From positions 102,750 through 166,749 of IMG/VR virus record IMGVR_UViG_2833096052_000002: a stretch of 64,000 bases of DNA; one strand, given 5' to 3'. Of this stretch, positions 9,127 to 51,647 are shown one piece after another. Source of the stretch: a virus (Duplodnaviria; Heunggongvirae; Uroviricota; Caudoviricetes). The notes under the pieces were generated by a model. The model saw nothing but the letters and a program-made list of their open reading frames with translations, was not told where the DNA came from and did no database searches. Position 1 is the stretch's first letter. Each line of letters opens with the position of its first letter. A program made the translations under genes and the position numbers.

Positions 9127-9353
9127 GCTGTCCATATTGTAGAGGAATAGGTGAACATGATTACAGATGTCCTCTTTGGCAGCCAAGTAAAAAGGCAAAA
9201 GTTAAATGTGGTTATTGTGATGAGTATATTCTTGAAGGTGACGATTACGTTGAGATTAATGGATGGACTTATCACAAAGACTGCTTAACTGTTAATAGGT
9301 TGCTTGATTTAATGGGAGTTATCACAAAGGAGATGTCATATGAATTGGATTAA
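9123..9353 (+). CDS. Small Zn-finger-like protein
   Basis: CPYC..H..C and CGYC...HKDC motifs, ATGA overlap. Confidence 0.65.
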   Translation: MSCPYCRGIGEHDYRCPLWQPSKKAKVKCGYCDEYILEGDDYVEINGWTYHKDCLTVNRLLDLMGVITKEMSYELD

Positions 9354-13191: not shown

Positions 13192-13265
13192 AGCGGAGTG
13201 ACGAGCAATGGAAGCTCACTTGGCTCATAACCAAGAGTATGCAGGTTCGAGTCCTGTTTCCGCAA
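13192..13265 (+). tRNA. tRNA-Met(CAT)
   Basis: Anticodon arm CTTGG-CTCATAA-CCAAG, T-arm GCAGG-TTCGAGT-CCTGT, unpaired 1:72; CCA not encoded. Confidence 0.85.
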
Positions 13266-13274
13266 CTCTCCTAC

Positions 13275-14122
13275 TTGTAGGCGGCAGGTTTCGTGTCGTT
13301 AAATAAACTTAGCAATAAGGATAAAGCAGGAATGTCTTTAGTTTGCATAAGACACTGCGACTGCATATAGCAGTTTGACGGAAAACACAGATAATCTATG
13401 CCAAACCTAAAATCAGAGGGCTACTGCTAATGATATGGTTTGGTAGGGGCGATGAAAAACGCTCTGTATTAACATGGAAACATGGATATGATTACTGTCT
13501 TATTGGTGCGATTTCCGCAAGAAAAAGTGCTGATATTGATTGTTGCAACGTTTCTTAATGCGAAAGCAAGGAACAGAACAATGAAGTAAGTCGATAGCAA
13601 GACGAACAGAATGGTGACGATTGGGCTGTACTCAAAAGGTACGGATGGTCAAATGTACACCTCATCGTTCATTTTTATGCAAATATTAATCGAAACATAC
13701 TTTTGAAGAAGAAAATATAATGATATTTGAAGAAGAAAATATAATGATATTTATTAAAAATTATTGAAAGGTAAATTGATTAAGAACAAGCAAAAGTGTG
13801 TATGACCGCAAAGAGACAAACAACTTATTCATCTGTAATATGGTGACATATAGCACTCGCAAGGTACTATATGAGAAAATACGAGTAGACGCAACCGTAA
13901 GAGATTTGCACTCTCTGAACCTCGCAAGGAACGATGTATTGAAAGGAAATCTATAATGCTTTGTGGTAAGAGTTTGCCAATTTTTGCAAAATTGGTGTTG
14001 TTGTTACCTACAGCCTAATCGACTGTGTGATAAATTGTGTCCAACCACAATAGATGGTAATGTATTAGGTCAAATATCTCAGCCTAAAGAAATAAAGTCT
14101 CATACTTCGGTATGGGTTTTTT
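13275..14122 (+). ncRNA. Candidate large structured ncRNA (GOLLD/ROOL-like size and context)
   Basis: About 850 nt without a credible ORF between two tRNAs; GNRA hairpins (CATG-GAAA-CATG 13473, TGC-GAAA-GCA 13559), GCCAAACC/GGTTTGGT stem; ends in CTCATAC-TTCG-GTATGGG-T6. Confidence 0.55.
13702..13752 (+). repeat. Perfect 24-bp tandem duplication
   Basis: TTTGAAGAAGAAAATATAATGATA x2. Confidence 0.9.
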
Positions 14123-14127
14123 ATTTT

Positions 14128-14202
14128 GAGTGTGTAGCTCAGTTTGGCAGAGCACTCGACTTTTAATCGAGTTGTCGATGGGTTCAAATCCCTCCACACT
14201 CA
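14128..14202 (+). tRNA. tRNA-Lys(TTT)
   Basis: GAGTGTG/CACACTC acceptor, CTCGA-CTTTTAA-TCGAG anticodon arm, TTCAAAT T-loop. Confidence 0.9.
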
Positions 14203-14410
14203 CTCTCTTCTGCTATTCAGCAGGAAATAAATCAAGAAAGAAGTGAAAATTATTAAGTACATTTCAAAAAATGAAATTGAAAAATTATTATCTGAAGGTG
14301 TAATTAGAAACACAAGACGAGGATATGTAGATCGCAGAGGCGAGCATATTGGATATTACAAGACTTGTGGTGGAAAGCGTTACATTGAAGATAAATATGT
14401 CAAGTAGGTT

Positions 14411-14728
14411 TTGCTTATGAAAAATCGAATTGAATATAAAGGATTTTATATTGACAAGACTGAAAATGGCTATCGTATCTGTAGACAAGAAGATACAGAA
14501 AAACATACTCATCTCTTAAATCTTAATCCATCGTATAAGCTTATAGACAATGTGTTGTCAAATAAAATTCCTACTTGTTGTGGATGTTATTATTTGGAGT
14601 CACATGCTAGATTAAGCTATGATGAAAATTATATTAGGAAGATTCGTGAGTATATCAAAGTGAAACAGAATAAAAGTAAACAAATGTATTACAATCCTAG
14701 CAGAAAACGTTCTGGTGGGAATTTTTAA
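14411..14728 (+). CDS. Hypothetical protein
   Basis: 105-aa ORF. Confidence 0.6.
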   Translation: MLMKNRIEYKGFYIDKTENGYRICRQEDTEKHTHLLNLNPSYKLIDNVLSNKIPTCCGCYYLESHARLSYDENYIRKIREYIKVKQNKSKQMYYNPSRKRSGGNF

Positions 14729-14749
14729 TTTTATGGAGGAAAAGGAATT

Positions 14750-14977
14750 ATGGCAGCTAGTAAATTAAAATTTACAAGAACAACTACAGATAAATTAACA
14801 GTAAAGGCAGGTACGCTCTCAGAGGATTGTACTACTATTACATATACTGATGAGAATGATATGGAGCAGGAGGTAAAAGTAGCTGATCTGCTTACCTCAT
14901 TTAAGAATCAGGTAATTGATTTTACTGTTGCATTAAAAACAGATGAGGAGCTGGATGTTCCGTCTGATGAAGAGTAA
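14750..14977 (+). CDS. YonK-like small acidic protein
   Basis: Size, acidic C-terminus and position directly before the phosphoesterase, as in SPbeta. Confidence 0.55.
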   Translation: MAASKLKFTRTTTDKLTVKAGTLSEDCTTITYTDENDMEQEVKVADLLTSFKNQVIDFTVALKTDEELDVPSDEE

Positions 14978-14987
14978 TAGAGAGTAG

Positions 14988-15968
14988 GTGGACATTATAA
15001 TCGACTTACATAGATTAGAAAATGAAACAGATTTTGAATGGAAATTGAGATGTTGTCTTGCAAAAAAGCGCAAGGAAACAGATATGGATTGGATTGAGAT
15101 TCGAGATATGCTTGGATTGAACATTACACCAGATCAGCTTAGAAAACAGGCTGTTGGATATGAAGAGTATGATAATTATATTCATGGCTATCAGGGTGTA
15201 GCCACTACTATCCTATCTGTGTCAGATTTACATGTTCCATTTCAGTTACCATATGAGTTACTGAAAGATTATCGTGGAGTTGATATCTTACAAATTAATG
15301 GAGATGTTGTAGATTGTCAAGCATTATCGAAATTTTCAAAACAGTATAGAATTTCACCAATGGAAGAAATGATTCAAGGTAGACAATATCTTATTGATTT
15401 AATTGAGTATATTCGTCCTAAGAAAGTAGTATGTAATTATGGCAATCACGACAAGCGATTTGCTAATTATTTTGCAAAGAATTTAGATACTGACATCTTG
15501 GAGCTTATGCCTGATACATCTTTGGAACTTATTTTTGTAGATGGATTTAAACACTATGACAAACGCAGTAAATCAAAGATTTGGTATGAATCACTTGTAA
15601 ATATTTTTGATGATATTGATATTCAGTATATTGATGACTGGAAATGTAAGATTGGTAAAACTTGGTTTGTTCATCCATTAGCATATAGGCAAGGGATGCT
15701 TGCTACTGCTGATAAGGCAAAAGATTATCTACAGGATACTGATAAAGAAGGATTTGATTGCGTTACGATGGCACATACTCATATGATTGGTGATTCAAAA
15801 CGTGGATATGTGAGACTTCTTGAACAGGGAGCTTTTGCAAATGTAGATAAGATGAATTACATGGATGGTAGATTAACAAAGCCACAGAAAGAAGGTTTCG
15901 CTGTTATCTGTCAAGATAAAGACGGTAATTTGATAGATGCTAAGACGAAAGTTATATCATTAAATTAA
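14988..15968 (+). CDS. Calcineurin-like metallophosphoesterase with N-terminal helical domain
   Basis: Motifs SDLH, GDVVD, GNHD, AHTH. Confidence 0.88.
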   Translation: MDIIIDLHRLENETDFEWKLRCCLAKKRKETDMDWIEIRDMLGLNITPDQLRKQAVGYEEYDNYIHGYQGVATTILSVSDLHVPFQLPYELLKDYRGVDILQINGDVVDCQALSKFSKQYRISPMEEMIQGRQYLIDLIEYIRPKKVVCNYGNHDKRFANYFAKNLDTDILELMPDTSLELIFVDGFKHYDKRSKSKIWYESLVNIFDDIDIQYIDDWKCKIGKTWFVHPLAYRQGMLATADKAKDYLQDTDKEGFDCVTMAHTHMIGDSKRGYVRLLEQGAFANVDKMNYMDGRLTKPQKEGFAVICQDKDGNLIDAKTKVISLN

Positions 15969-16252
15969 ATAACAATTGTAGTCCACTGTTCGGTTCAGTT
16001 TGGAGTAATTGTGAAAGCAGATATTCACAGCTATAATTAATATACGACTAATATATTATTCATTTTTGTTTATTTTAACATTTTTAGATAATATATTAGT
16101 CTTTTTGGTTAATGAAACCACTATCAGAGTGAGTGTACCTTATATGGACGCTACCCTCTTATTATTTTGGCAATAAATTAAGATATTGCCGAAAAATATA
16201 AAACAAAACACTCGAAAAAATATAAACGAAGATTAAAAGGAGAAAATTTAAA

Positions 16253-16534
16253 ATGAACAAGACAGATTTAATAAAAAATGTAAGTACACAGATTGATGGA
16301 GCTACACAGAAAGATGTTGCTGTTATTGTAGACACAGTACTTGAGACAATTGTTAATACAGTTGCTTCTGGTGAGAAGGTATCTCTTGCAGGATTTGGTA
16401 ATTTTGAGGTTGCTGAGAGAGCTGCAAGAACAGGTAGAAATCCAAAAACAGGCGAGCCATTAGAGATTGCAGCTTCTAAGAGTCCAAAGTTCCATGCATT
16501 AACTGGTTTTAAGAATGCAGTTAAGAATGCTTAA
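16253..16534 (+). CDS. hup: HU family DNA-binding protein
   Basis: MNKTDLI...VSLAGFGNFEVAERAARTGRNPKTGE. Confidence 0.95.
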   Translation: MNKTDLIKNVSTQIDGATQKDVAVIVDTVLETIVNTVASGEKVSLAGFGNFEVAERAARTGRNPKTGEPLEIAASKSPKFHALTGFKNAVKNA

Positions 16535-16545
16535 TCTGAAGGGAT

Positions 16546-17145
16546 GTGAATTGTTTGAAGAAAAATAAATATGAAGACATTCAGATGATTGATCTTGAGG
16601 ATAAAGTTGATGATATCACTGATATTTTTATCAATCGCTTATATCATACAGACAAAACCGTTGGTGTAGTTGTCAATAAGGAAATTGCTGAATATATTCT
16701 TGATGAACTCGTGAAAATTGACGAGACAAGCATTAAAGAAGTTGACCTTGTTGATTATATGAATATAGACGAATATTTAGTATCTGTCGATGATGATGGC
16801 GTAATCACTGTTGTTCCTATTGAGGACTTTTGTGTTCTTGATAATACAGACATTTTTTATATTGATATGGATGGTGATATTAAACAGGATGTCATTGATT
16901 ATTGTGTAAATGAGGATAAGGAAGTTATTCTGTTTGGACAGGAAGATGACTGCGATGGTGATTGTAAGAACTGTCCTGCGCATGATGAGACTTACTTACA
17001 TACTTCTAAAGACGAAGATGGAAATGCTCACGGATTTACTGCTAGTAGGTCAGATGGCGACTCTTATATGAGTTATTCTTACTACTCTAGCGATGAGTTA
17101 AGTCATGAAGATATTCAGAAGATGTTAAAGGCTTTTGGATTTTAA
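16546..17145 (+). CDS. Acidic hypothetical protein
   Basis: 199-aa ORF directly after hup. Confidence 0.7.
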   Translation: MNCLKKNKYEDIQMIDLEDKVDDITDIFINRLYHTDKTVGVVVNKEIAEYILDELVKIDETSIKEVDLVDYMNIDEYLVSVDDDGVITVVPIEDFCVLDNTDIFYIDMDGDIKQDVIDYCVNEDKEVILFGQEDDCDGDCKNCPAHDETYLHTSKDEDGNAHGFTASRSDGDSYMSYSYYSSDELSHEDIQKMLKAFGF

Positions 17146-17193
17146 TATTTGATTTTTAGAGTGTGTGGTTAAGGCTGCACACTCTTTTTGTAT

Positions 17194-17277
17194 GGGTGGA
17201 TATGCCTAGAGGCGAGGGCAAGAGACTGTAAATCTCCCACATGAGAAACACCGTAGGTTCGACTCCTACTCCACCCA
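17194..17277 (+). tRNA. tRNA-Tyr(GTA)
   Basis: GGGTGGA/TCCACCC acceptor, CTGTAAA anticodon loop, long variable arm, TTCGACT T-loop. Confidence 0.88.
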
Positions 17278-17521
17278 CTATTGCCAGAAAGAGAAATCTT
17301 TCTCCTATTAAGGATATCCATATAAGGAGCGTATGGCGGTGAGTTGACATCGTTAACAACTTGCGTGAACCTCAAGAGTGGTCAAGAGTGATAAAAACTC
17401 TCAAAAAAGTGTAAGGCTTTTGTATAATGGGCAAGCATTTAAAATCAATTATTTCTGTTGAGAAACAGAGAATAAATATATGTGCTCATGATTGGTGTCA
17501 TAGCTGATTGTGGGATTTATG

Positions 17522-17625
17522 GAACAGTAGGTACTTGGAGTAGCTACCAAGTATATGAGGCAACCTACACACCTCTTCTACTGTTCTATTTTTATTGTAT
17601 GTGTAGGGGAAAGTGTAGGAAAATT
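17522..17625 (+). promoter_or_regulatory. Structured 5' leader (three-way junction plus pseudoknot/anti-RBS doublet), copy 1
   Basis: GAACAGTAG/CTACTGTTC outer stem; loop CCTACAC complementary to GTGTAGG x2 just before the ATG. Confidence 0.55.
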
Positions 17626-18909
17626 ATGGGAACAAGAATGTTAAAGGTTGGAGATAAAGAAGTCCAATCTACTAAAGTAACTTATGACGATTTGGTTATT
17701 TTGTATAATCAATTTATTGATACTTATGGTGAAGTGCCAGTATATTCAAAATGTGACTCAAAACATAATATGCCACAAGGCAGAATTATAACTCGTGTAT
17801 TAAAAGAAAATAGTATCACCTATAATGATTTCTTGTTACAGTTTGGTAAGGTATCTCACGTAAGGACAGAAAGTAAAGATTATGATTTATATGTCAAAAG
17901 ATTTAAAGAAGTAAGTGATAATATTGGTCATGCTTTATGCGGAAATGAGTTAATGAATAATAAATATGGTTTACCAAATCCAATTTGGTTCGTAAAATAT
18001 TGTCCAGATAAAAATGTGAAAAAATATGATGATTTCGTGCGTTGGTGTGGTTATGAAAGCAATAAGCTCAAAAAAGAAAAAGAAGATATTGCGAATGCAC
18101 TTATAAATCTTGAGAAAGAATTAGGCAGACCAATTTTGCGAGAAGATATTTCACTTGAGAAAATTGGTTTTTCAATGATTGTATTAGTAAGAATGTTTGG
18201 TGGTCTTAATAAAGCTAAAGAAGAAATTGGTCTTATGCCTACACCAACAGATAAACCTCTTTATCCATTTGAATATTATAGGAATACTATTACAGAGGCA
18301 TTAAATAATCTATATGAAAAAACTGGTAGAAAATTTCTTACATGGCAAGATTTAGAAAGTGGTTTATATCATAAAAACAATATTGAACATAAATCAATGA
18401 CAAAAGCATTTAAGCGTGAAGGTTTAAATGTATTTGCTTATATTAAAAGCTTTGGATTTGAAATGAATCCAAATAATTTTAGTTTTAAATACACGTTTGA
18501 TGATGGTGAACGTGCTGTATCAACTATGGAATTTGATTTTTCTACACATATACGTTCTCTTGGATATGAATATAACAAATCATATTTTAGAGATGTAATG
18601 TATAAGACTTTTACAAATAGTGACAAGAAACGAAAAACAAATTGTGATTACTGTATGCTTTTGCCTAATGGTAAAAAGTTATATGTTGAAATTGCAGGTG
18701 TTATACCTAACGACACGGCAGATTGGAGACATTATGAATACAAGTACAAACGTCATCAAGAGTATCAACAGAAAATGTTATACAAAGAAAAAATACTTAT
18801 AGAGAACAAATGTAATTATCTATTTCTGTTTTCATCTGAAATGAAAAACGGAAGTTATAAAGAAATATTGCAAAATAAAATAAATGAGATTTTACAAGAA
18901 GTAGCTTAG
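17626..18909 (+). CDS. Homing-endonuclease-like protein (repeated helical domains plus C-terminal PD-(D/E)xK-like nuclease)
   Basis: Repeats such as FGGLNKAKEEIGL; C-terminal CDY...LYVEIAG; start moved from 17482 to the ATG after the leader. Confidence 0.55.
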   Translation: MGTRMLKVGDKEVQSTKVTYDDLVILYNQFIDTYGEVPVYSKCDSKHNMPQGRIITRVLKENSITYNDFLLQFGKVSHVRTESKDYDLYVKRFKEVSDNIGHALCGNELMNNKYGLPNPIWFVKYCPDKNVKKYDDFVRWCGYESNKLKKEKEDIANALINLEKELGRPILREDISLEKIGFSMIVLVRMFGGLNKAKEEIGLMPTPTDKPLYPFEYYRNTITEALNNLYEKTGRKFLTWQDLESGLYHKNNIEHKSMTKAFKREGLNVFAYIKSFGFEMNPNNFSFKYTFDDGERAVSTMEFDFSTHIRSLGYEYNKSYFRDVMYKTFTNSDKKRKTNCDYCMLLPNGKKLYVEIAGVIPNDTADWRHYEYKYKRHQEYQQKMLYKEKILIENKCNYLFLFSSEMKNGSYKEILQNKINEILQEVA

Positions 18910-18956
18910 CTTACCACTACTCTACTTCTTTTTATTATACGAAAGGAAGTGATTTA

Positions 18957-19973
18957 GTGGCACATGTAACAAGGGTAAAATATTTTACCAAGGATAAGGA
19001 GAAATTTATAAATCCTGATAACTTGAAGAAATATAAGAAGTATCTCCAATCAAATATTATAAAAAATCAGGATGTTAAAGATACTACATATAAAAGATAT
19101 GAAGGATTGTTTCGTCATTTCCTTATGTGGTTAGGTGAAAATTATGGAGATTTAGATTTGTATTCAGATGAGTTTATGGAAGATGCTGTTGATATTATGG
19201 AGAACTATATTATGTTCTGCCAAGAAACACTTCTGAATCATAAAAAGATTATTAACATGAAAATTTCTGCCGTTAGCTCATTCTATATTTGGTCTATGAA
19301 ACGTGGTTTTGTAAAATATCATCCTTTTGATGGAAAACTCGATAGAATGAAGAAAGCTAATGAGGAACATATTTTAAATTCGTATTTCCTTACAGAAGAA
19401 CAAGTTCAAACAATCCGTAGAGAGTTATCTGAAAATGATAAGTATTCAATTCAAGATCAGATTTTATTTGAGGTAAGCTTCGATTCTGCCAATAGAATTG
19501 GCGCATTGTTAAGATTGCAGTTATCCAAACTTGATTTAGAACATAACATGTTTATTGATATAAGAGAAAAGGAAGGATACCGTACACAGGTAGTTTTTGG
19601 TGATGTTGCAAAAGAACTTATTCAAGAGTGGCTTGAAATGAGAAAGAATGATTATGACCATTTGGAATGTGATTCATTGTTAATTACAAAATACAATGGA
19701 GAATATAAACCTATGGGTGATAGCGCAATCAGAGATAGAATGAAGAAATATGGTGAAATAATTGGAATTTCTGACTATAGACCTCATTGCCAACGAAAAT
19801 CTCGTCTAAATTTGGTTTATGAAGAGACTGGCGATTTAGCATTAGCAGCCGAGCTTGCCAACCACAAATCGACAGAAACAACCCGTTCCTTCTATTGTAA
19901 ACCTAAAACTAAGGCAGAAGTTATGGAAAAAATCAATGCTTTAAAAGAGAAAAATGAGGCAGAAAGTAAATAA
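18957..19973 (+). CDS. Tyrosine recombinase (XerC/D-like)
   Basis: Catalytic R (SANRIG), HxxR (HCQR), H (LANH) and Y (RSFY). Confidence 0.9.
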   Translation: MAHVTRVKYFTKDKEKFINPDNLKKYKKYLQSNIIKNQDVKDTTYKRYEGLFRHFLMWLGENYGDLDLYSDEFMEDAVDIMENYIMFCQETLLNHKKIINMKISAVSSFYIWSMKRGFVKYHPFDGKLDRMKKANEEHILNSYFLTEEQVQTIRRELSENDKYSIQDQILFEVSFDSANRIGALLRLQLSKLDLEHNMFIDIREKEGYRTQVVFGDVAKELIQEWLEMRKNDYDHLECDSLLITKYNGEYKPMGDSAIRDRMKKYGEIIGISDYRPHCQRKSRLNLVYEETGDLALAAELANHKSTETTRSFYCKPKTKAEVMEKINALKEKNEAESK

Positions 19974-19995
19974 ATCTGAAAAACTTACTATATAC

Positions 19996-20960
19996 AAAGA
20001 TTAGGTTGCGCCTTTACAGGCATATTGGATGGTGGCATTCAATAGCGTAAAACCTATGTCAACGTAAACCGACATTAATTTCCTAATCTTTTTTGCTTTT
20101 AAATGGAGAATAATTATAAGCCGAATGCTCTGAAGCCATAAGAACTCAACAAGGCTCTGTGAAAATCAGACGGACAGGTAGACTGATAGCACTACTGAGT
20201 TGCGAACCTCACCAAAATCGTATTATGTAGAGGTTACGAAGCCTGTAAAAAATCACATAACTAACATAGTAGAATGATACTAGGTATTATTCATTTTATA
20301 AGTGAGCTGTCACTGACCGATATGTGACATAAATATAAAGGTCGGTTTGCGAAATTATTGACCTTTGGAATGGTCTAAAACTTCCCACTGCTACTGCTTA
20401 TTGGCGGTGTTATGGAGAGGTCTTGCCTTAGTAGACGATTAACAAATGCGGTTGCCACCACCGTTAAGTGTGGAACGATGAAGTTTGGTGTACCTCTATC
20501 AAAGACGTTGAAACGAGGAATAGCCGACACGATGCATTTCGCCAAATAAACAAATAAGACAGAGTAAGGAATCTTGAAGTCGGCAATCTTATCCTACCAT
20601 CACCACGGATAATCGGTTTCTTCCAACATGGAATGGTGTCCGTGCTTCTCTGCGTTAGTGAGAACCTTTAATAAGTAAAACACAACTTCTATTAGTCGTT
20701 TTGTAAGGTATGGATTTATCGCTAAATTCGTATCTGATTTTTTGAGATAGAAATAGCGAATGACTGCTTGGCGGTCTGTCGGATAAAAGACATTAAACAT
20801 TATCAAGTGATGGAACGTAGCGTATCTATTCTTAAATGTACCATCTAAAAAACGTGATACGCACAAAATAAGCAAGAATGGAAATTACAGTATGTGTTTT
20901 TATTCTAAATAACTGGATGTGTACAGTCCAATATCAGCTAGTTAGTGCTTTATGTTGATT
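19996..20960 (+). ncRNA. Candidate structured ncRNA region preceding the tRNA array
   Basis: About 960 nt with no credible plus-strand ORF; multibranch AAAGATTAGG/CCTAATCTTT element at 19996-20091 and many hairpins downstream. Confidence 0.4.
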
Positions 20961-20964
20961 TTAA

Positions 20965-21036
20965 TGACTCGTAGCTCAATGGTAGAGCACTCGACTGTTA
21001 ATCGAGGCGTTGTGGGTTCAAGTCCCACCGAGTCAG
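20965..21036 (+). tRNA. tRNA-Asn(GTT)
   Basis: TGACTCG/CGAGTCA acceptor, CTGTTAA loop, TTCAAGT T-loop. Confidence 0.9.
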
Positions 21037-21040
21037 TTAT

Positions 21041-21112
21041 GGCTCTATAGTATAAAGGTAATTATACCCGACTGTCTATCGGAAGATTTGGATTCGATTC
21101 CCAATAGAGTCG
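21041..21112 (+). tRNA. tRNA-Asp(GTC), atypical
   Basis: GGCTCTA/TAGAGTC acceptor, loop CTGTCTA (T at position 37), A.C mismatch at 53:61. Confidence 0.72.
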
Positions 21113-21117
21113 TTTAT

Positions 21118-21189
21118 GGGACGTTGGACAAATGGCTAAGTTACAGCCCTTTCACGGCTGCGATGCGAGTTCGATCCTCGCACGTCCTA
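21118..21189 (+). tRNA. tRNA-Glu(TTC)
   Basis: GGGACGT/ACGTCCT acceptor, CAGCC-CTTTCAC-GGCTG arm. Confidence 0.88.
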
Positions 21190-21409
21190 TTTTATGCGGT
21201 AAACCTGAAGCCAAAACCTATTTTTTGGATGCATACAAAATTTAGGTGTGTAAGTTCATCACTTGCTACCGCCCTATCAAATTATCCGTAGGCAACAACT
21301 ACGCAGATCATTCTGATAAAGTCGTAATGAAAATAGTTTCATTTAGTTTAGAGAAAGATAATTTTTAAAGAAAGAGTCATTTCCTTTGGAGGTGGCTCTT
21401 TTATTATAT

Positions 21410-21483
21410 ATGTCCTTAGTTTAATTGGTTAGAATATCAGACTCCAAATCTGAGAGATGTGGGTTCGACTCCTACAGGGCGTG
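21410..21483 (+). tRNA. tRNA-Trp(CCA)
   Basis: TCAGA-CTCCAAA-TCTGA arm, TTCGACT T-loop, G.U-rich acceptor. Confidence 0.82.
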
Positions 21484-42320: not shown

Positions 42321-45300
42321 ATGGCTGACGAAATAAAATTGAAAGCACCCACTGTCGAACAGCAAGTTGTTGTTAATATCAATGGTGAAGATAAATTAAA
42401 ATCATTTGCAGACACTCTTGATAAAATTTCTAATAATAAAAACCTTCAAAAATATTGGAAAACTCAACAAGATTTAATAAATGCTACTGCTGATGCTTAT
42501 GGTAATTTTCAAAAGAAAGCTTCTAAGGACAATGCTTCTGAGTTAATTAAGGTGACAAATGCGCTGAAGGCTATGTCTGGAACTGACTTATCCCATATTT
42601 TACCTGATTTTGACAAAATATCAAAGAGTATGGCTGAAGCCCAAAAGGTTGCAGGTGATATTGATAGTGCTTTTTCCGTAAAAGGATTTAAGGAAGCGTT
42701 TGATTCTTTTGAAGCATTAAAGGCGTATGGAACAGATATTCAAAAATTATTTAGTCATTTTGGTGTAAGTTCTGACATTGGTGAATTACAGCAAAATGTT
42801 CGCTTGTTAGAGGGTGAGGTAGAAAAACTCACTAGAAAATTAAGTAATGCAAGAAATGCCAATGAAGAGTTACGAAATGAATTTGAAAATTTTAAAGTTG
42901 GTTCTGGTTTTGCCGACAAATTAGATGAACTGGATAGATTAAAATTAGATATGCAAAACATTCGTAATGAAGCTATCCAGACATTTAATCAATTTTTAGA
43001 TGCAAATAAAATTGATAGATATGATTGGTTTAATGATGATCGATTTGCCGAATATTTTGAAAAATTAGAAAATGGTACTCTTACAGCTACAGATGCAATA
43101 AGACGATTTAAGTCAGAATATTCTTATCTTCTTGAAGAGAGTTATAAGTCAAGCGGAGATTCATTTGGACTAGATCAGTTACAAGCTTTTTCTACAAAAC
43201 TTGATTCAATTTTTTATCAAGTAGAGGAAACATCAAATAAAATTAATGACATTCTTTCTAATGGTGTAATCGCAAAGTCAGTACAAAATCTTAGTGAAGA
43301 CACTACTCTATCTGATTCTCAACGTTCTATATTCGGAAATATTCTTCAGGATGAAAAATCTCTCAAATCAATTACTGCTTTATTTCAGAAATTAATAGAT
43401 GAAACTAACCAGACTAAAAATACTGAAATTTGCAATACTGAGCAATTTGCAAAAATTGAATCACTATTTACAAACATTGAGTCAAGCTTATCTTCTATCA
43501 AAGGTGTCTTAGTTGATGTTGGCGATGGCGAAGAATTATCTCCACTTCTCAGTGAAATCAATAATATACAAACTGCAATTGTAGGATTATCTTCAAGTCT
43601 CAATAATCTTCATTTTAACATGAATATTGATATGGGAACAGATAATCAGATGGAAGCAAAGATCCAAGAAAAAGCTGCAAAAGCCCTCAATGCTTATGAA
43701 AAGCTTTTTAATGGATTAAAAATGTCTGGTTATGGTGGTGAAGTTGTCAATAACAAATTCTTTGATTTTGACATAAATAAATTTGACACAACAATTGGAA
43801 AAGTTAAAGCCTATAAAGATATAATCGAAAGATTAAGAAAAGAAGCCAAGGAATATTATGGTGGTACAGATTTATTACGAACTCAGACGGATGATAAATT
43901 ATGGCGTTCTGCTTCATCTGCTGGTGGTCAACTTACACAAGCAATAAATGAAACTGCTAAAAACAAGACTGATAATCCGTTGACTGAATTATTTGGAAAA
44001 ACCGATTTGTCTGGTGTTATTGAACAGTTAAATACCATTATTTCTAAGCTTGATGAGATTTCTGTATCTGCAAAAGGATTCACTGAGACATTTAAAAATG
44101 GTTTAAATGTAAATGCTTCTGTAGAGGAAATCGAAAAACTTACTAATAGAGTTAAAGAGTTAGAAGCTGAATTAGCAAAGATTAAAACTCCTGCTACCAC
44201 TATTCCGTCTGAGGACATGAAAGACGCATTTTCTAAGACCTCTGAAAACTTAGAACAGGTTGCACAATCTGAACAAAAAGTACAGCAAGAAGCTGTGGCA
44301 ACTGACAAGGCACTTGATAATATCAGTTTTACTCCTAATACAGAGGGTTTTGAAGATATAATTGCCAAGTTTGGAATACTTCGTGAGCAGGCAGAACAAA
44401 TTACAAAGATAGTTAAGACTACTAAGCAAACTGCCGATGGTACACCAAATATTTCGTATAAGGCAACATTGAGAAATGGTAGTTCTTATTATCTTGGTGA
44501 GAATAGTACACCACAAGTTTTAAATGCAAGTGAAACAGTATATGATGCAAAAGCAGATAACGCAAAGAAACTTGAGCGAGAAAAACAGATTTGGAACGAA
44601 CTTACGATTTCTCTTGAGAGATATGCTACTATTCAGAAAAGAATTGCAAGTAATAATGCTTTGAGTACAGATAATGAGGAAGCAATAAAACTTCTTGAGC
44701 ATATTCATGAATTACAGAGAAATGATATTCTTCCAACAGAGAAATTAACTGCTTCTAACGAAAAATTACAACAGATAAATCAAACTGTTACAGATTTAAA
44801 AGCGAAACTCAAAGAATCTACTCTTGATTCTTTACAAGGTTCTATTGATAAGTATCAGAAAGTCTATGATCAAAGAAAAACCTATTCTTCTGATTTTACT
44901 CCAAGTGAACAATATACCAAAAACTTAACTGAGCTAGATACAGCAATTGGAAATCTCGTAGAGTATAGAAACACATTAAAAAATGTTAGTGAAGTTACCG
45001 TAAAACAAGAGGCTGAATTAAAAGGATTGGTTATGGCATGTGAAAAAGCTTCTGATTCTTTTAAGTCACTTTCTGCCTCTGAAAAAGGTGCAAGCCAGAT
45101 TGCCATTGATAAATTAGTTCAGAGAATTAATAAGGATTTAGATGAGTGTACAAATTACTCTAAGGAAGCAAAACTTGGATTAAGAGCATTGCGAGATGAA
45201 TTAGAGTCTGCCAATCCAAGGAATCTGAAAGAGATTACATCTGAAATCATTAATATTGAAAATGCGGAAATCAGAGCTGGTCGTGCCGGTAGAAGTTTCT

Positions 45301-46505
45301 TTGACACTTTAAAGAATAGCGGATTCCATCAGATTGCTGCTCAGATGGCAGGTATGTTTGGACTTTATGATGCTATTAATATTGGTAAAGAAGGTTTTAA
45401 TGTTGTAAGAGAACTTAATACTGCTCTTACAGAAATGCGAAAAGTATCTGATGAGACTGTTCAAAGCTTGAAAGATTATCAAGTTACTACTTTCGATACG
45501 GCAGATGCGGTTGGTACAACTGCAAAACAGATACAAAATTCCACAGCAGATTGGATGCGTCTCGGAGAATCAATGAATCAAGCTGCGGAAAGTGCAAAGG
45601 ATGCAAATGTTCTTTTAAATGTATCAGAGTTTGAAGGAATAGACGAAGCAACGGAGTCTCTTGTATCAATGAGTCAGGCGTATAAAGATCTTGATAAAAT
45701 GGATATAATTGATGTTCTCAATAATATTGGCAACAATTATAGTATCTCGACAGATGGATTAGCAACTGCTCTTAAAGATTCCGCAAGTGCATTAGTAACT
45801 GCAAACAACGATCTTAATGAAGCTGTTTCGTTGACTACGGCTGGTAATGCTATAACTCAAGATCCATCTAAGGTAGGAGCAGGTTTAAGAACGATTTCTC
45901 TTAGATTGGTTGGTACAGAGGAAGCTAAACAGGAGCTTTCAGATTTAGGCGAAGAAACAGATGGAATGATTACTACTGTTTCTAAACTTAGAGATACAAT
46001 CATGGATGCAACCAAAGCTGCATCGTCAGATGGAAAGGGTTTTGATATTCTTGATTCTAATGGAAATTATAAAAGTACATATGAAATCATGCAAGGACTC
46101 GCAGATTTGTATGACAATATTGTAAAAAAAGATAAAGAACTAGGAACAAATAATCTTAATCTCTTACTGGAGACTATAGCTGGGAAAAATAGATCGAACA
46201 TTGCCGCAAGTATTCTTCAGAATGGAGATATGCTTCGTTCGGTGTATGAAGATGCTCAAAATTCAGAAGGATCAGCAGAAAAAGAATTAAACTCTTATCT
46301 TGATAGTATTGATGGCAAAATGGCACAGTTGGAGAATCGTGCCCAGGAGTTCTGGTTTAAAATAATTGACTCCGAAACTATCAAGAATGGAATTGATTTA
46401 TTATCTACACTTATTAAAGGTGCTACTGATTTTGTAGATACAGTTGGATTGTTACCAACTGTTCTTGCAGGAATTAGTACAGCACTATCATTTAAAAATG
46501 TCGGT
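42321..46505 (+). CDS. Tape measure protein, exon 1 (1395 codons, ends ...SFKNVG)
   Basis: Coiled-coil N-terminus and TMP core (ELNTALTEMRKV...GAGLRTISLRL...GSAEKE); the ORF runs 28 codons into the intron. Confidence 0.85.
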
Positions 46506-46860
46506 GGGAATAAAATGCATTTCCCGATGAATATACTCGACAACATACATAATTTACTTTGGATACAAAGGTTTAGAGTATGTTATCCGTGAGATACACG
46601 GTGATAAACACCCTATAACGTCTGAATAGACTTGTATGCCATAAACATACAACTGGGAATTACGTAAAACTCACACTACTCTCCTATTTTGGTAACAAAT
46701 TAGGCTATAGTGACAATGTGTGAACTCGTATGGTCAGGTCGGAAGCTTCCTTATTATAAGGAATAACCGCCACAGTAATGCTATGGGTGAGATTCAGTAT
46801 ATGAAATGATACTGATGAGAATAGACATTCGGTGCTATTATGGATCGTAGCCATAAAATT
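46506..46860 (+). ncRNA. Ribozyme core of the intron
   Basis: P3 CACCCTATA 46609 / TATGGGTG 46782; P7 CAGTAATG 46773 / CATTCG 46826; P8 TCAGTAT 46794 / ATACTGA 46809; P9 TATGG/CCATA. Confidence 0.65.
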
Positions 46861-46963
46861 ATGAGTTAGGAACTTATCTCCTACTTCTACGTTAAGTTTG
46901 AACCAACTGTTCCTTGGTAGATAAGATGGAACAAAAAAAGAGAATAATAAAATAGGAACTGCT

Positions 46964-47191
46964 CTACTCAGTCCCTACTTCATTTTGCTCGTGCAAATCA
47001 ACCTCTAAAGAGGTGTCATCGTATTGAGCTTTTATGCTAACTTCTTTATATTCACAAATTTTATCTGTAATGTGTTGGATTGTATTGCACACAAAGTATA
47101 CAGACGTTCCAAGCAGAGCACACACAGAGATAACTGCAATAAGTTTATATAAAGAGTTACACTTAACAGCATATTTAATCATCTTACTCAT
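46964..47191 (-). CDS. Small single-TM protein (intron cargo)
   Basis: AGGAGG RBS before ATG 47191; hydrophobic segment LIAVISVCALLGTSVYFV. Confidence 0.55.
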   Translation of the reverse strand: MSKMIKYAVKCNSLYKLIAVISVCALLGTSVYFVCNTIQHITDKICEYKEVSIKAQYDDTSLEVDLHEQNEVGTE

Positions 47192-47580
47192 AACAGTCAC
47201 CTCCTATCATTGTCTTTGTTTTGAACATCGTACTATTGATAGGTTGGTGTTTGTTTGAGGAACACCTTTTAAAAATGGAAGTGACCGTATTTTCATTTGA
47301 AGCTGTAAGTATATTATATATCATATTGGAATATTCTGGTAGAGAGAACATATATTCCAAGAAATCTCGATTTCAATTAAAAAATAAAAATGACACTACT
47401 CTATTTTGAGCAATGCCATTTTGTAGGGAATATATCTTGCTTGATATAAACATATCATAGCACATATTCTGTTATTTGCAAATACTTTTTCTGTTTCAAA
47501 CAGAGAATAATAAAATAGAGAGTAGAACACTCTACTCTCTTCTATATAAAATGATATAATATTCCCACCAGATTTTCTAA

Positions 47581-47661
47581 CTACGCACAAAGCTTAATGA
47601 CAATAATTAAAGCCATTACTGCAATGATAAAACCAGCGTTCACTTTTATCTTACATTTCAT
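47581..47661 (-). CDS. 26-aa hydrophobic peptide (intron cargo)
   Basis: AAAGGAGG RBS before ATG 47661; MKCKIKVNAGFIIAVMALIIVIKLCA. Confidence 0.5.
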   Translation of the reverse strand: MKCKIKVNAGFIIAVMALIIVIKLCA

Positions 47662-47972
47662 GGTAATTGTCCTCCTTTCATGTTTATAGACTTCTACGAA
47701 ATCCGCATTGAAAGGCATAATGCTCAAGCTAGTGCCCGATGCAACGACCATATAGTTATACTCATCTGGCTCTCCAACACTTATCTTTTGGATAAGTATT
47801 CCACCCAAGAATATTATATCACTGTTTTTTCAAGTGTAAATCCAAAACATATGTTTTGTCGATCTATGTAATACGAAAAATAATTAAAATTTTTCAAAAA
47901 TCTTTACAAAAAAATTCATTTGTGTTATCTTCAAAATAGTAAAAATTTTCAATTTTTGAAGGAGGTAACACG

Positions 47973-48950
47973 ATGAAAGTTTCAAGAGAAAATTGTCCAG
48001 TTAAGCCATTAATAGGAAAAATGAAACGAGAGAAAATTGTATTAAAGCACAAATTGCAAAGAAGAGAATCTGTTTGGTCTAATCCAAACAAATCATTGCT
48101 TATTGACTCTCTTTTAAGAGGATATATTGTACCACCAGTTTATACTATTTCTGAAGATGGTGTACAATATGTTATTGATGGTGTACAGCGATTAAGCACG
48201 TTAAAAGGATTCTATAATGATGAGTTTGCAATATCTAAAAAGGCAGAACCAGTTATAATTGAAGGAACTGAATATAGCATTGCAGGATTGAAATTTAGCA
48301 AACTTGACCAAGTTGTAAAGGACGAGTTGGACAGTTCTGCTATCACAGTATATGAAATTACGGAATATACAGACAAAGATGTAAGAGAAATGTTCCGAAG
48401 GCTCAATTCAGGAAAACCTCTGAATACTTCACAGAAGCTTACACCTGATATGTCGGATGAACTCAGTAATGCTATCTTTGATATTGTCTCTCTTCCATTT
48501 TTTGAAAAGAGACTGACATCTGCTCAGTTGAAGAGTTCAGTCGATCAGAGTATTGCACTTGAAACACTGATGCTCTGCTCCACTAATAAAGATAACGATT
48601 TTGCTTCATTTAGAGGTAAGGATAAAGAGAATTTTATCGAATTCTATAATGACAAAGTTGAACCTGAAAAGATTGAAATCATCAAAACCGCAATCAATAA
48701 ACTTGATGAATCTCTTGAAGAAGATGTAAAAATTCCAAAGACAAGTATTTCTGTATTGTGTTTTGCAGCATATAGAATTTGTAAAGACAAAAAGAGCTTT
48801 GAGAAATTTGCTTTGAAAGTAAGTGAATTCTTGACAACATACAACGATAATACTGAATACAAGAATAATCTTATGAATGGTACTAATTCTGCCGAGTCTG
48901 TCAGATTTAGATTGGATTATTGGAGAGAAATTTTAAAAACATTACAGTAA
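47973..48950 (+). CDS. DUF262-domain protein (ParB/Srx-like) (intron cargo)
   Basis: QR..VW...KSLLIDSLLRGYIVPPVY...VIDGVQRLSTL...F.RLNSG.PL. Confidence 0.85.
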   Translation: MKVSRENCPVKPLIGKMKREKIVLKHKLQRRESVWSNPNKSLLIDSLLRGYIVPPVYTISEDGVQYVIDGVQRLSTLKGFYNDEFAISKKAEPVIIEGTEYSIAGLKFSKLDQVVKDELDSSAITVYEITEYTDKDVREMFRRLNSGKPLNTSQKLTPDMSDELSNAIFDIVSLPFFEKRLTSAQLKSSVDQSIALETLMLCSTNKDNDFASFRGKDKENFIEFYNDKVEPEKIEIIKTAINKLDESLEEDVKIPKTSISVLCFAAYRICKDKKSFEKFALKVSEFLTTYNDNTEYKNNLMNGTNSAESVRFRLDYWREILKTLQ

Positions 48951-49101
48951 ATATTTAAAGAGTAGTCGGTTGGCTACTCTTCTTTCATATTTACAATATT
49001 CCTTCGAATATATGTTTTCTATAGATTTATGGTAAAAATTGGTATATAATAATACAAAGGTCATAGATGACATATAGTTTTAACTAAATAAAGGGATAAG
49101 C

Positions 49102-49443
49102 ATGTCAAAAAGAACAAATAATGGGAAACTAAAAAGCCTAAAGGACAAACATGATAAGAAAATTTCAGAAATTGCAGAACTTGAAAAGAACATTGTTAAT
49201 CAAGTTTTTGATAATTATATAGATCCAGAAGCTCAAAAAGAATTGTTGAACGATGCAAAGACTTTTCACTATTCTGAGACAAAAATATCAAATGTCCAAA
49301 AGGTATTTGAAAATTTTAATACGGACACTATCGAATATAATGTTGCTGTTGATATTATAGATATGGAAACACATATACAGCAACATAAAAAAGAAGGGCT
49401 GTTCTCCAGAATTGCCAATGTTGTAATGCCAGAAGACGACTAA
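49102..49443 (+). CDS. Hypothetical protein (intron cargo)
   Basis: 113-aa ORF with RBS. Confidence 0.65.
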   Translation: MSKRTNNGKLKSLKDKHDKKISEIAELEKNIVNQVFDNYIDPEAQKELLNDAKTFHYSETKISNVQKVFENFNTDTIEYNVAVDIIDMETHIQQHKKEGLFSRIANVVMPEDD

Positions 49444-49480
49444 CAAAAGCATAACAAGACATCAGCAAGAGGGAACATAT

Positions 49481-49804
49481 ATGAATGAATTAAATATCTA
49501 TAAAAAATTTAACTATAATAAATTATTAAAAATTTCTAATTTATATTTTAATACAAACTACAAATGGTATAATAAAAAAACGGTCTTTGCTCCTGAAAGG
49601 GGGCGATATACCGTTTCAATAAGTAGGTATAATGTTAGAATTTGTTATTGGAATGATACTTCTACCGAATTTGAAAAAGATTATTCTTTAATAAAAAAAT
49701 ACCTATTTGAAATTCTTGAAAATCAAAAAACAAATATTATTTGTTTAGGTGAATGTAATATTTTAGACAACTTTACTTTTATAAATAAAATACAATTAGG
49801 ATGA
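49481..49804 (+). CDS. Hypothetical protein (intron cargo)
   Basis: 107-aa very AT-rich ORF. Confidence 0.55.
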   Translation: MNELNIYKKFNYNKLLKISNLYFNTNYKWYNKKTVFAPERGRYTVSISRYNVRICYWNDTSTEFEKDYSLIKKYLFEILENQKTNIICLGECNILDNFTFINKIQLG

Positions 49805-49813
49805 GGTTGAGAA

Positions 49814-50224
49814 ATGAGTATACTTAGTAATGTAGAGAATACATTTGCGGAAAAAGGAATAAAATATTTGAAAGGAAATAATTCGAATTCTAATATCTTA
49901 AATGTCCCATATAGAGGTATTAATAATGAAAGTAATCATATTAATATTTATATGGATATAGATGAAGAGCAACAAGTAATAAAATTTACTTTTGAAGGAA
50001 AAGCGAATAATAATCATGAAATTTCTGATATTAAGTCAAAATTACTAGATATAAATGCTACATTAAATTTTGGAAATTTGTCAATGCGGAATGATAGTGA
50101 CACCATAGAATATCGAATTGATTACAAAGTTGAGGAAGACTCTTTTTCGTTTGATGAATACAACAAAAATATAATTCGTTGTATTAATGTTTATGAAAAT
50201 CTTAAGGAAAATGATTTGATCTAA
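49814..50224 (+). CDS. YbjN/T3SS-chaperone-fold-like protein (intron cargo)
   Basis: KLLDINATLNFGNLSMRND..IEYRIDY pattern; fold call is an inference. Confidence 0.55.
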   Translation: MSILSNVENTFAEKGIKYLKGNNSNSNILNVPYRGINNESNHINIYMDIDEEQQVIKFTFEGKANNNHEISDIKSKLLDINATLNFGNLSMRNDSDTIEYRIDYKVEEDSFSFDEYNKNIIRCINVYENLKENDLI

Positions 50225-50225
50225 T

Positions 50226-50642
50226 ATGCCAGACAATAACAATTCAAGTAAAGACAATTTTATGTACTACCTTTTTCAATTGGTTGTATGGGTTATTATG
50301 CTAATATTGATTTTATTAAGAATTTTTACATACAAAACTATATCAAACAATTGGATTTGGATTATTAATTATGCTGGAATGTCAATAGCATTCATAAATA
50401 TTTTAGTAAATAAATGTTTTAACTTAAAGGAAAAGAAAAGTAAAAAATATAAACCTTTTGTTGGATTTACTGTAGTATTGGTAGTTATAACATGTATATT
50501 GGCGATTCCTGTATGTTTATTACAAAGTAATCAATATTCTCAGTCATTAAATGATATTATTACATTATTGGCATTGTTCTTTAGTTTATCTAATGATATA
50601 TGGAATCGGATTCTTAATTTTTTTGCAAATATAATAAAGTAA
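50226..50642 (+). CDS. Four-TM membrane protein (intron cargo)
   Basis: Four hydrophobic segments. Confidence 0.7.
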   Translation: MPDNNNSSKDNFMYYLFQLVVWVIMLILILLRIFTYKTISNNWIWIINYAGMSIAFINILVNKCFNLKEKKSKKYKPFVGFTVVLVVITCILAIPVCLLQSNQYSQSLNDIITLLALFFSLSNDIWNRILNFFANIIK

Positions 50643-50669
50643 AGAGCAGGATTAATCTCCTGCTCTTTT
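50641..50669. terminator. Bidirectional intrinsic terminator between convergent cargo units
   Basis: AAAGAGCAGGA-TTAATC-TCCTGCTCTTTT. Confidence 0.75.
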
Positions 50670-50871
50670 AATATTCTCACTACTCTTCCATCCTATTTAA
50701 ATTTTGAAACGCTCTATCAAATTCATCACATATTATCATTTTTACAGCAGAATATACAATCAAGTCTTTTTCATTGTCGGTAAGTGTTCTGATGTAATTT
50801 TTTAGTTCTTCATCATTCATGTTTCTCATTAAAAATATTTTGTCTGTTAATTTTGACATATTGGTATTCTC

Positions 50872-51207
50872 TTATTCTTCTGATTTACCCAATTCTTCTT
50901 CCATTTTATCAAAATCTAATCCATATCTCTTTTCAAGTTCGTTAAGTATATTATATATACCTTTACCAATGAATAAATGATTAGATCCGAATACATACTT
51001 CATAGTATGAATTTCTGATGGAGAAATTGAAGTAATAGAGCCACGGTATGTTCTCATATTTTCTTTTTGATATACTTTTACAGGATATCTATATCCAAGA
51101 CCTTCGATTCCTGTATAACCATCATACGAATTTGGATTATAACACTCTCTTCCAACTTCATATTCAAGTTTGGCTATTAGTGATGCAATGTTCTGGGTAT
51201 TTTTCAT
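50872..51207 (-). CDS. Hypothetical protein (intron cargo)
   Basis: GGGAGG RBS, 111 aa. Confidence 0.7.
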   Translation of the reverse strand: MKNTQNIASLIAKLEYEVGRECYNPNSYDGYTGIEGLGYRYPVKVYQKENMRTYRGSITSISPSEIHTMKYVFGSNHLFIGKGIYNILNELEKRYGLDFDKMEEELGKSEE

Positions 51208-51222
51208 TGGTGTTACCTCCCT

Positions 51223-51580
51223 TTAAAAATCTGAATTGCATGAATTACAGTGCCACTGCTTACCTATCTTCTTACTTGCTAATCCGAACATAGCAGTTGA
51301 AGTCATGCGACTTACTGTACCAATTTTTGATGTATTGGTTGAATGACAGTATGGACACTCGACTTTTGGTTTTGATAAAGGAAAATTCGGATCTTCCATT
51401 GGATTATATTTTGGTTGATTTTTACGTTGTTCAGCTAATTCTGTATCGCAATCAACATTATCTATAAAATTTAATCTTCCACCACACTTCAAACAAAATT
51501 TACTATACGGTTTAGATGATTCAAAAAAATAAATTTTTCCACATTGTTTGCATTCTAACATATCTTTGTTAATTATCATG
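51223..51580 (-). CDS. Multi-Zn-ribbon protein (intron cargo)
   Basis: CKQC, CLKC, CPYC, CNSC; AGGAGGG RBS before ATG 51580. Confidence 0.75.
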
Positions 51581-51604
51581 TAATTACCCTCCTGATTATT
51601 ATTT

Positions 51605-51633
51605 ATTATACTCTTCAAACAAGTATAAAGCAA
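51605..51633 (-). promoter_or_regulatory. sigmaA promoter antisense to the tape measure transcript, 14 nt from the 3' splice site
   Basis: Minus strand TTGCTT-17 nt-TATAAT. Confidence 0.65.
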
Positions 51634-51647
51634 TTAAAAATAGTACG

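Follow-up and report, generated by a model that had tools for sequence, protein, structure and literature searches.

A structurally unusual group I-type ribozyme core at a split giant tape-measure gene of a phage

The split tape-measure gene and its insertion

The DNA analysed here, a stretch of 64,000 nucleotides referred to as the window, is part of a 178-kb record of a gut phage in IMG/VR. It carries a tape-measure gene in two parts, which are separated by an insertion with a structured RNA element at its 5' end and a set of cargo genes behind it. Seven tRNA genes are found further away (13193-21483), upstream of the structural module. The main features of the locus are the following:

42321-46505, plus strand: exon 1 of the tape-measure gene, 1395 codons
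46499-46505, plus strand: last seven nucleotides of exon 1, UGUCGGU, the 5' strand of P1
46506-46932, plus strand: predicted ribozyme core
46933-51640, both strands: cargo of about ten ORFs with terminator-like sites, mosaic among relatives
47973-48950, plus strand: GmrSD_N/DUF262 ORF of 325 residues, the largest cargo gene (Pfam 5.2e-17; phrog_2598 1.1e-36)
51641-51647, plus strand: predicted intron 3' end, comprising UAGUAC (the P9.0 partner) and the terminal G51647, a conserved junction in relatives
51648-57296, plus strand: exon 2 of the tape-measure gene, in a frame that is open from 51573

The frame of exon 1 comprises 1423 codons (42321-46592) and continues past position 46505 for 29 non-conserved codons up to a stop at 46592; in the related locus L004, the corresponding read-through tail, as read from the sequence, has nine codons. 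The frame of exon 2 contains no ATG, GTG or TTG before 52005, leaving 119 open codons without a start. Brevibacillus phage Sundance has an uninterrupted tape-measure protein, a single one of 2528 residues, to which parts of both frames can be aligned: residues 954-1395 of exon 1 correspond to its residues 653-1090, and residues 106-292 of the exon 2 frame to its residues 1111-1275, colinear with exon 1. In two more distant relatives, L075 (2523-13826) and L078 (2439-17114), the tape-measure frames are unbroken, with 3768 and more than 4892 codons, respectively, and to our knowledge rank among the longest phage genes. On the basis of the colinearity with Sundance and of these unbroken frames, the two frames of the window are best understood as halves of one giant gene, and 46506-51647 as an insertion that needs to be removed.

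Altogether, 80 related loci with exon 1 were collected, and in every locus where exon 2 could be placed an insertion lies between the exons. An intron-less allele with an identical junction was not found among the close relatives, and downstream of the junction in L075 no similarity to exon 2 was detectable. In several relatives, further insertions of about 1.6-3.2 kb are present inside exon 1 (8615-10238 in L079 and L080, approximately 9014-12212 in L030, and others in L073, L081 and L083), which probably represent extra introns located elsewhere in this gene. Neither megablast nor blastn gave a real match among 50,697 phage isolate records.

Fold and covariation of the core

The original prediction, made from the sequence of the window, had placed a group I-type core with the canonical order of helices at 46506-46860. 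The sequence elements named in it are all present where it had located them, in an agreement far beyond chance (27 homologues). The region is indeed the 5' core of the intron, although its extent was given too short, with a conserved P9 domain continuing to about 46932. In the following list, helix numbers refer to the scored structure, and both-side changes are base pairs in which both partners vary among the homologues:

46506-46525, plus strand: hairpin within the P1 loop, GGGAA...UUCCC (helix 2; 4/4 pairs change on both sides)
46529-46534, plus strand: P10 guide GAAUAU, complementary to AUAUUC, the first six bases of exon 2 (51648-53)
46535-46542, plus strand: internal guide sequence, the P1 3' strand, ACUCGACA, with A46535 opposite the splice-site base U46505
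46543-46583, plus strand: P2 with the inner hairpin P2a (helices 4-6, including P2.1, with 4, 4 and 3 both-side changes)
46587-46601, plus strand: P2.1; GAUA(C) occurs in the terminal loops of both P2/P2a and P2.1
46609-46617, plus strand: P3 5' strand CACCC(U)AUA, pairing with UAUGGGUG at 46782-89
46620-31, plus strand: hairpin "P3.1" in J3/4, GUCU-GAAU-AGAC, 4 bp with a GAAU loop (helix 8)
46632-52, plus strand: hairpin "P3.2" in J3/4, UUGUAUG-N7-CAUACAA, 7 bp with a 7-nt loop (helix 9)
46653-46737, plus strand: P4 (CUGG/UCAG), P5, P5a, P5b and P5c (helices 10-14; P4 invariant)
46740-46772, plus strand: P6 (CGG/CCG), P6a and J6/7 (CCA) (helices 15-16)
46773-46789, plus strand: P7 5' strand (C46773, bulged A46774, G46775, bulged U46776, AAUG ending at 46780), followed by P3'
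46794-46815, plus strand: P8 (helix 18; all 7 pairs change on both sides)
46816-25, plus strand: J8/7, with AAUAG invariant across the alignment
46826-31, plus strand: P7 3' strand CAUUCG, pairing with 46773-46780
46832-46837, plus strand: P9.0 strand GUGCUA (GUACUA in most relatives), complementary to UAGUAC at 51641-46
46839-46932, plus strand: knotted P9 domain, with P9 at 46839-55, P9.1 at 46867-83 and P9.2 at 46902-18
46886-90, plus strand: CUACG, pairing with the L9 loop CGUAG (both partners change together in L088 and L096)
46920-25, plus strand: GAUAAG, pairing with the L9.1 loop CUUAUC in a loop-to-strand interaction
46928-32, plus strand: GGAAC, pairing with the L9.2 loop GUUCC (eight complementary variants among relatives)

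The structure was evaluated on an alignment (A1) of 27 distinct homologous cores obtained from two pattern scans of viral contigs. One of the patterns fixed P7 and P3', while the other fixed only ATAAAC...CTGGGAA...CTACTC and left P7 and the 3' strand of P3 free; the seven cores retrieved with the latter supply the covariation in P3 and P7. A pattern scan of genome contigs contained no family member among the at least 120 matches listed (nhmmer). The scored, pseudoknotted structure comprises 104 pairs in 20 helices. Counted on the 27 sequences, 95.6% of its cells pair, both-side changes affect 55 of the 104 pairs, and a covariation score of 0.291 is reached, versus 30-44% paired cells, 8-14 both-side changes and scores of 0.035-0.086 in controls in which the 3' partners were slid by 1-3 columns; among 500 shuffles, none matched the observed values. 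Compensatory changes are found in several hairpins already in relatives at 84% identity and, over the whole set, in each of P3, P7, P3.1, P3.2, P5, P5a, P6, P6a, P8, P9 and P9.1. Both the level of pairing in comparison with the slid controls and the compensatory changes in P3 and in P5 to P8 bear out a group I-type core with the canonical helix order.

Covariation in P3 and P7 had been named beforehand as the point on which this fold could fail, and it is found in both helices, with one compensatory pair in P3 and two in P7. In P3, the pair A46610-U46788 is replaced by G-C in seven sequences, and C46612 is replaced by U in one, giving a U.G pair. In P7, the 5' strand of which pairs with CAUUCG at 46826-31 (helix 17), A46778-U46828 is replaced by G-C and G46780-C46826 by A-U in the same seven sequences that carry the P3 change. 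Because these seven all belong to a single clade (the L120 group), the number of independent events behind the P3 and P7 covariation is small. An alternative P3 involving CAUA at 46646-49 was discarded, given that this strand covaries within the hairpin P3.2. As P4 is invariant, the alignment neither supports nor opposes its pairing. In the adjoining arm, P5 and P5a each have four pairs changed on both sides, and P5a contains a conserved A-rich bulge, ACAAU, on its 3' side (46713-17). Four pairs are likewise changed on both sides in P6a, and in P6 the pair C46740-G46769 is inverted to G-C in L096.

The usual P7 of group I introns reads GACUA/UAGUC, and J3/4 usually consists of three nucleotides. 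The core of the window departs from both. The atypical P7 of the original prediction, CAG(U)AAUG/CAUUCG, stands as a doubly bulged helix, and the guanosine-binding motif is retained in it: C46773-G46831, the bulged A46774 and G46775-C46830 are invariant in 27/27 homologues. P7 ends at 46780 and P3' starts at 46782, leaving only C46781 between them; since P7 thus abuts P3', the hairpins P7.1 and P7.2 are absent. The two extra hairpins that had been proposed between P3 and P4 are confirmed by compensatory changes in helices 8 and 9. P3.1 is paired in 100% of the cells with two pairs changed on both sides (L096, for instance, reads AUCC-UAAU-GGAU), and P3.2 is paired in 98.9% with five pairs changed on both sides, a pattern which indicates that both helices are under selection.

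Guide sequence, splice sites and cargo

The sequence of the joined exon ends is matched by a complementary strand at 46528-46542 (UGAAUAUACUCGACA). In the best register of P1, U46505 pairs with A46535 and G46504 with C46536, while U46537 is bulged, so that A-C-(U)-CGACA faces UGUCGGU. Importantly, the exon codon and the guide co-vary among the relatives in four variants (GUCGGU/GCCGAC, GUUGGU/GCCAAC, GUAGGU/GCCUAU and GUGGGU/GCCCAC). A U.G wobble at the 5' splice site is near-universal in group I introns, and the U-A pair noticed in its place is real in the window copy; yet it is limited to this copy and five near-identical ones, with U.G in 20 of 26 family members. The distribution marks U-A as a derived state that has replaced the U.G wobble, which probably slows the first step of splicing.

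On the 3' side, P10 (GAAUAU/AUAUUC) forms a duplex of -5.0 kcal/mol. The guide GAAUAU is read at the corresponding place in related loci, and the exon 2 start AUAUUC in L100, a locus of the core's own family, as well as in ten loci that carry introns of two sister classes, A2 and B (see below). P9.0 comprises 6 bp directly after P7, with a duplex energy of -7.6 kcal/mol, and the arrangement GUAC.../...GUACG also occurs in L100 and in classes A2 and B. With the junction given as a slash, UAGUACG/AUAUUC is found in frame in the ten loci (L011, L014, L015, L016, L020, L048, L051, L064, L065 and L067), in which the exon 2 protein is about 30-60% identical to that of the window and the inserts are 3158-6348 nt long; in L100, the insert is 5829 nt long and the junction reads CAGUACG/AUAUUC. 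Thus, what characterizes a group I 3' splice site is found here—the terminal G51647, the complementarities of P9.0 and P10, and a conserved junction. For the L118/L120 group, L093 and L172, candidate 3' splice sites were dismissed, with motif matches attributable to chance and stops following directly.

Splicing at 46501/51644, which is also in frame and would use a G46517.U wobble, a GCAUUU guide and G51643 as the terminal base, was considered and rejected, because the guide that covaries with the exon is 46535-42 and the relatives have U.G at 46505. Moreover, the P10 guide adjoins 46535-42, and the conserved 3' junction is GUACG/AUAUUC.

Taken for itself, the stop 29 codons past 46505 could mark the ordinary end of a gene, in which case two tape-measure-like genes would be expressed separately without any intron, and the structured RNA would serve in processing or regulation. 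We give this reading hardly any credence, considering that exon 2 would have to do without a start codon for 119 codons, that the guide spells both exon ends and covaries with the exon, that a conserved 3' junction, in frame, persists in divergent contexts, and that both parts are colinear with single tape-measure proteins. From these comparisons, we regard it as highly probable that the segment from 46506 to about 46932 is a group I intron ribozyme and that the intron, 46506-51647, interrupts the giant tape-measure gene after K-N-V-G.

While the fold, its conservation and the complementarity between guide and exons can be read from the alignment, we infer catalysis, the order of the steps and the roles of the additional elements as follows. 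The guide at 46529-46542 would hold the end of exon 1 (P1) beside the start of exon 2 (P10), and the P3-P8/P7 pseudoknot together with the P4-P6 arm would build the guanosine site at G46775-C46830. Free guanosine would cut after U46505, the 6-bp P9.0 would fetch the 3' end from 4.7 kb away, and G51647 would enter the guanosine site used in the first step, with the exons being joined in frame. The lineage would have kept the P1-P2-P2.1 front of its family, the long P5 arm with the A-rich bulge and the knotted P9 domain, and would have acquired P3.1 and P3.2 in J3/4 as well as the unusual P7 with its two single-base bulges.

The original prediction had further seen in J8/7 a mimic of the intron 3' end which, by pairing locally with the P9.0 strand, might keep the ribozyme switched off until the distant 3' end is transcribed. 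The likeness is real, AAUAG being common to J8/7 and the 3' end, and a hairpin of J8/7 with the P9.0 strand can form at 46820-46839 (-3.2 kcal/mol). This hairpin is, however, confined to 7/27 sequences, which belong to a subgroup with about 99% identity to the window; for the other 20, the local minimum-energy folds are different or near zero. Because it is present in seven near-identical sequences and in none of the other 20, it is not a conserved design feature. The invariance of AAUAG in J8/7 has reasons that apply to all group I cores, and the true P9.0 duplex is far stronger than the local hairpin. A hold-off of the ribozyme is therefore unsupported, and we consider it very improbable.

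Directly behind P9.0 follows the knotted P9 domain, in which P9 and P9.1 each have four pairs changed on both sides (helices 19-20). The variants of L9.2 and its partner include AUCCC/GGGAU, GCUUC/GAAGC, AUCUC/GAGAU, UGCAUU/AAUGCA and UGUGCA/UGCACA. The domain (46839-46932) is common to three intron classes, A, A2 and B, and has no match in Rfam. Its probable role is to shield the fold of the ribozyme from the variable cargo that follows.

The GmrSD_N/DUF262 ORF also occurs, at about 90% identity, in the cargos of several relatives whose ribozymes belong to other classes. It is the sole cargo ORF with a family match above the cut-off; a second one has a weak, sub-threshold match to a zinc ribbon. 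No homing endonuclease or transposase family was found among the ten cargo ORFs in Pfam and PHROGs scans. A motif, ACAGAGAAUAAUAAAAUAG, followed by a hairpin is recurrent in many of the cargos (46940-46984, 47387-47422 and 47505-47540 in the window, and also in L024, L029, L034 and L061); read on the minus strand, it has the make-up of an intrinsic terminator behind small minus-strand ORFs.

On the sense strand, terminator-like hairpins are located at 48958-81 and 50641-68, and opposite-strand genes with their own terminators lie near the intron 3' end. Since a sense transcript has to pass these hairpins and opposite-strand genes, cis-splicing of the full 5.1 kb is not assured. The two halves of an otherwise genuine core might instead be joined in trans, with one transcript for exon 1 and the core and a second for the 3' end and exon 2, meeting via P9.0 and P10 (12 bp), or with the assistance of a phage or host protein; the unusual length of P9.0 (6 bp) and the U-A splice pair, suggestive of a weakened first step, would fit such a scenario as well. 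We judge it improbable, however, given that no promoter for a separate sense transcript was identified just before 51641, that promoter-like matches are not enriched (47 vs 35 +/- 6.5 in shuffles), and that phage late transcription commonly reads through intrinsic terminators.

Sister introns and known systems

The same tape-measure codon, K-N-V-G, is occupied by at least nine unrelated-looking intron front ends, including at least eight other ribozyme classes (clusters from L004-L083); the insertion codon lies at about position 9200 of the loci L004-L083, equivalent to position 46505 of the window. Two of these classes, A2 (e.g., L010 and L033) and B (e.g., L006 and L015), are 85% identical to the window core over the first 100 nt, sharing P1-P2-P2.1, and have in common with it the P5c hairpin, the P9.0 motif and the knotted P9 domain. 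In contrast to the window core, they have an ordinary short J3/4 and P-/Q-like sequences near the consensus (AAUAAUCGGGAAC and GGAAUCCGAUGGG in L010). Aligned by eye, their P7 is likewise doubly bulged and consists of different base pairs (CUGCAGCG/CGCUCG and CAGAGAGUG/CAUUCCG). In class B, the largest class (35 loci), the last base of the exon is C and stands opposite the guide A, so that a C/A pair replaces U.G. Because these sister introns share the scaffold of the window core and yet have an ordinary J3/4, the simplest reading of the alignments is that the window core represents a derived lineage within one intron family at this codon.

A further proposal was that the core might constitute a new subclass of group I introns. 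The covariance model RF00028 returned no group I match for the window, for eight related loci or for four loci with canonical-looking cores, and with the 481-nt core alone nothing was obtained at the gathering score or at E<=10. In control runs, the T4 td intron scored 40.3 bits, below the 50-bit cut-off, and the T4 nrdB intron (L312, 18956-20720) was unreported at E<=1. As td stays below the cut-off and nrdB is missed, the silence of RF00028 is weak evidence, and the model does not provide a strict criterion; arguments of the type "no Rfam match" need caution in the case of phage introns.

In the strongest version of this proposal, none of the subgroups IA-IE accommodates P3.1/P3.2, the doubly bulged P7 and the triply pseudoknotted P9, and the core with its 26 relatives would form a distinct subgroup in which J3/4, normally the strand behind the triple-helical scaffold, is replaced by two stacked helices, a second bulge is present in the guanosine helix, and P9 acts as an insulator. 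P3.1/P3.2 would then mirror P7.1/P7.2 of the IA introns on the opposite strand of P3, and the P9 domain would let the ribozyme fold whatever kilobases of cargo follow. Such a subgroup would be in line with the lack of an RF00028 match at any threshold, the absence of similar DNA from the 50,697 phage isolate records, the missing IA hallmark P7.1/P7.2 and the selection on the extra helices. Against it, RF00028 also misses nrdB and scores td below its cut-off, the sister introns on the same scaffold have an ordinary J3/4, the overall layout presumably resembles the IC1-type architecture, and the optional elements catalogued for group I introns already include a pairing named "P3.1" (PMC3873408). 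A new subgroup is therefore not established, and we hold it to be rather unlikely. The core is real, well conserved and structurally unusual for a group I ribozyme, and to us it looks like a divergent branch within a known type.

RNA folding and catalysis are classically studied on group I ribozymes, and a natural family which tolerates helices in J3/4 and a second bulge in the guanosine helix would show how far their architecture can be stretched. The same holds for its tolerance of U-A or C/A where the U.G wobble is expected, and of a 3' splice site 3-6 kb away from the core. The knotted P9 domain together with the long P9.0 suggests how a ribozyme may carry a large, exchangeable gene island within an essential phage gene, and is relevant to the storage and exchange of accessory genes by gut phages. 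Furthermore, since the standard Rfam model misses these introns, the giant tape-measure genes of phages from metagenomes are annotated as two genes and an island.

Among the known architectures, the layout of the window core recalls, as we take it, the IC1 type represented by the Tetrahymena LSU intron, with P2 plus P2.1, a long P5 arm with an A-rich bulge, and P9.1/P9.2 as peripheral helices which in both cases are presumably joined by loop-loop or loop-strand pairings. It would differ from what we assume for IC1 in the sequence and the bulges of P7, in a linear P5 arm instead of the three-way P5abc, in the extra J3/4 helices, and in P9 pairings that stay within the domain, none being seen with L2/L2.1.

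Subgroup IA is defined by the pair P7.1/P7.2 (or P7.1a) between P7 and P3', which the window core lacks. Like the window intron, the T4 td intron (IA2) lies in a phage protein gene, and the two have in common a bulged base ahead of the G-binding pair, J8/7 sequences of the AGAUAUAG type and a P9 hairpin. In the alignment, however, td has a P7 of GACUA/UAGUC and visible hairpins P7.1/P7.2 between P7 and P3', whereas the two extra hairpins of the window core follow the opposite strand of P3 and precede P4.

Group I introns in tape-measure genes are known from prophages of the Bacillus cereus group, where TMP-IVS1, -IVS2 and -IVS3 have different cores at one shared homing site (Tourasse & Kolsto 2008, PMC2504315). 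In being group I introns and in their placement within a tape-measure gene of a prophage, they match the window intron. They belong, however, to IA1 or IA2, are compact and contain at most one homing endonuclease gene (PMC2504315), whereas the window intron is devoid of P7.1/P7.2, includes helices in J3/4 and accommodates unrelated genes amounting to about 4.7 kb.

[quoted passage not shown] 2014, PMC4227781). Their cores are of the IA2 type with P7.1/P7.2, and their passenger is an IS200/605 or IS607 element (PMC4227781; PMC3984707). In the window, where a transposase family was not found among the cargo ORFs and the core is one without P7.1/P7.2, a 5'-ribozyme layout of the same kind (core 46506-46932, cargo 46933-51640, 3' site 51647) instead encloses a mosaic gene island, 3-6 kb in size.
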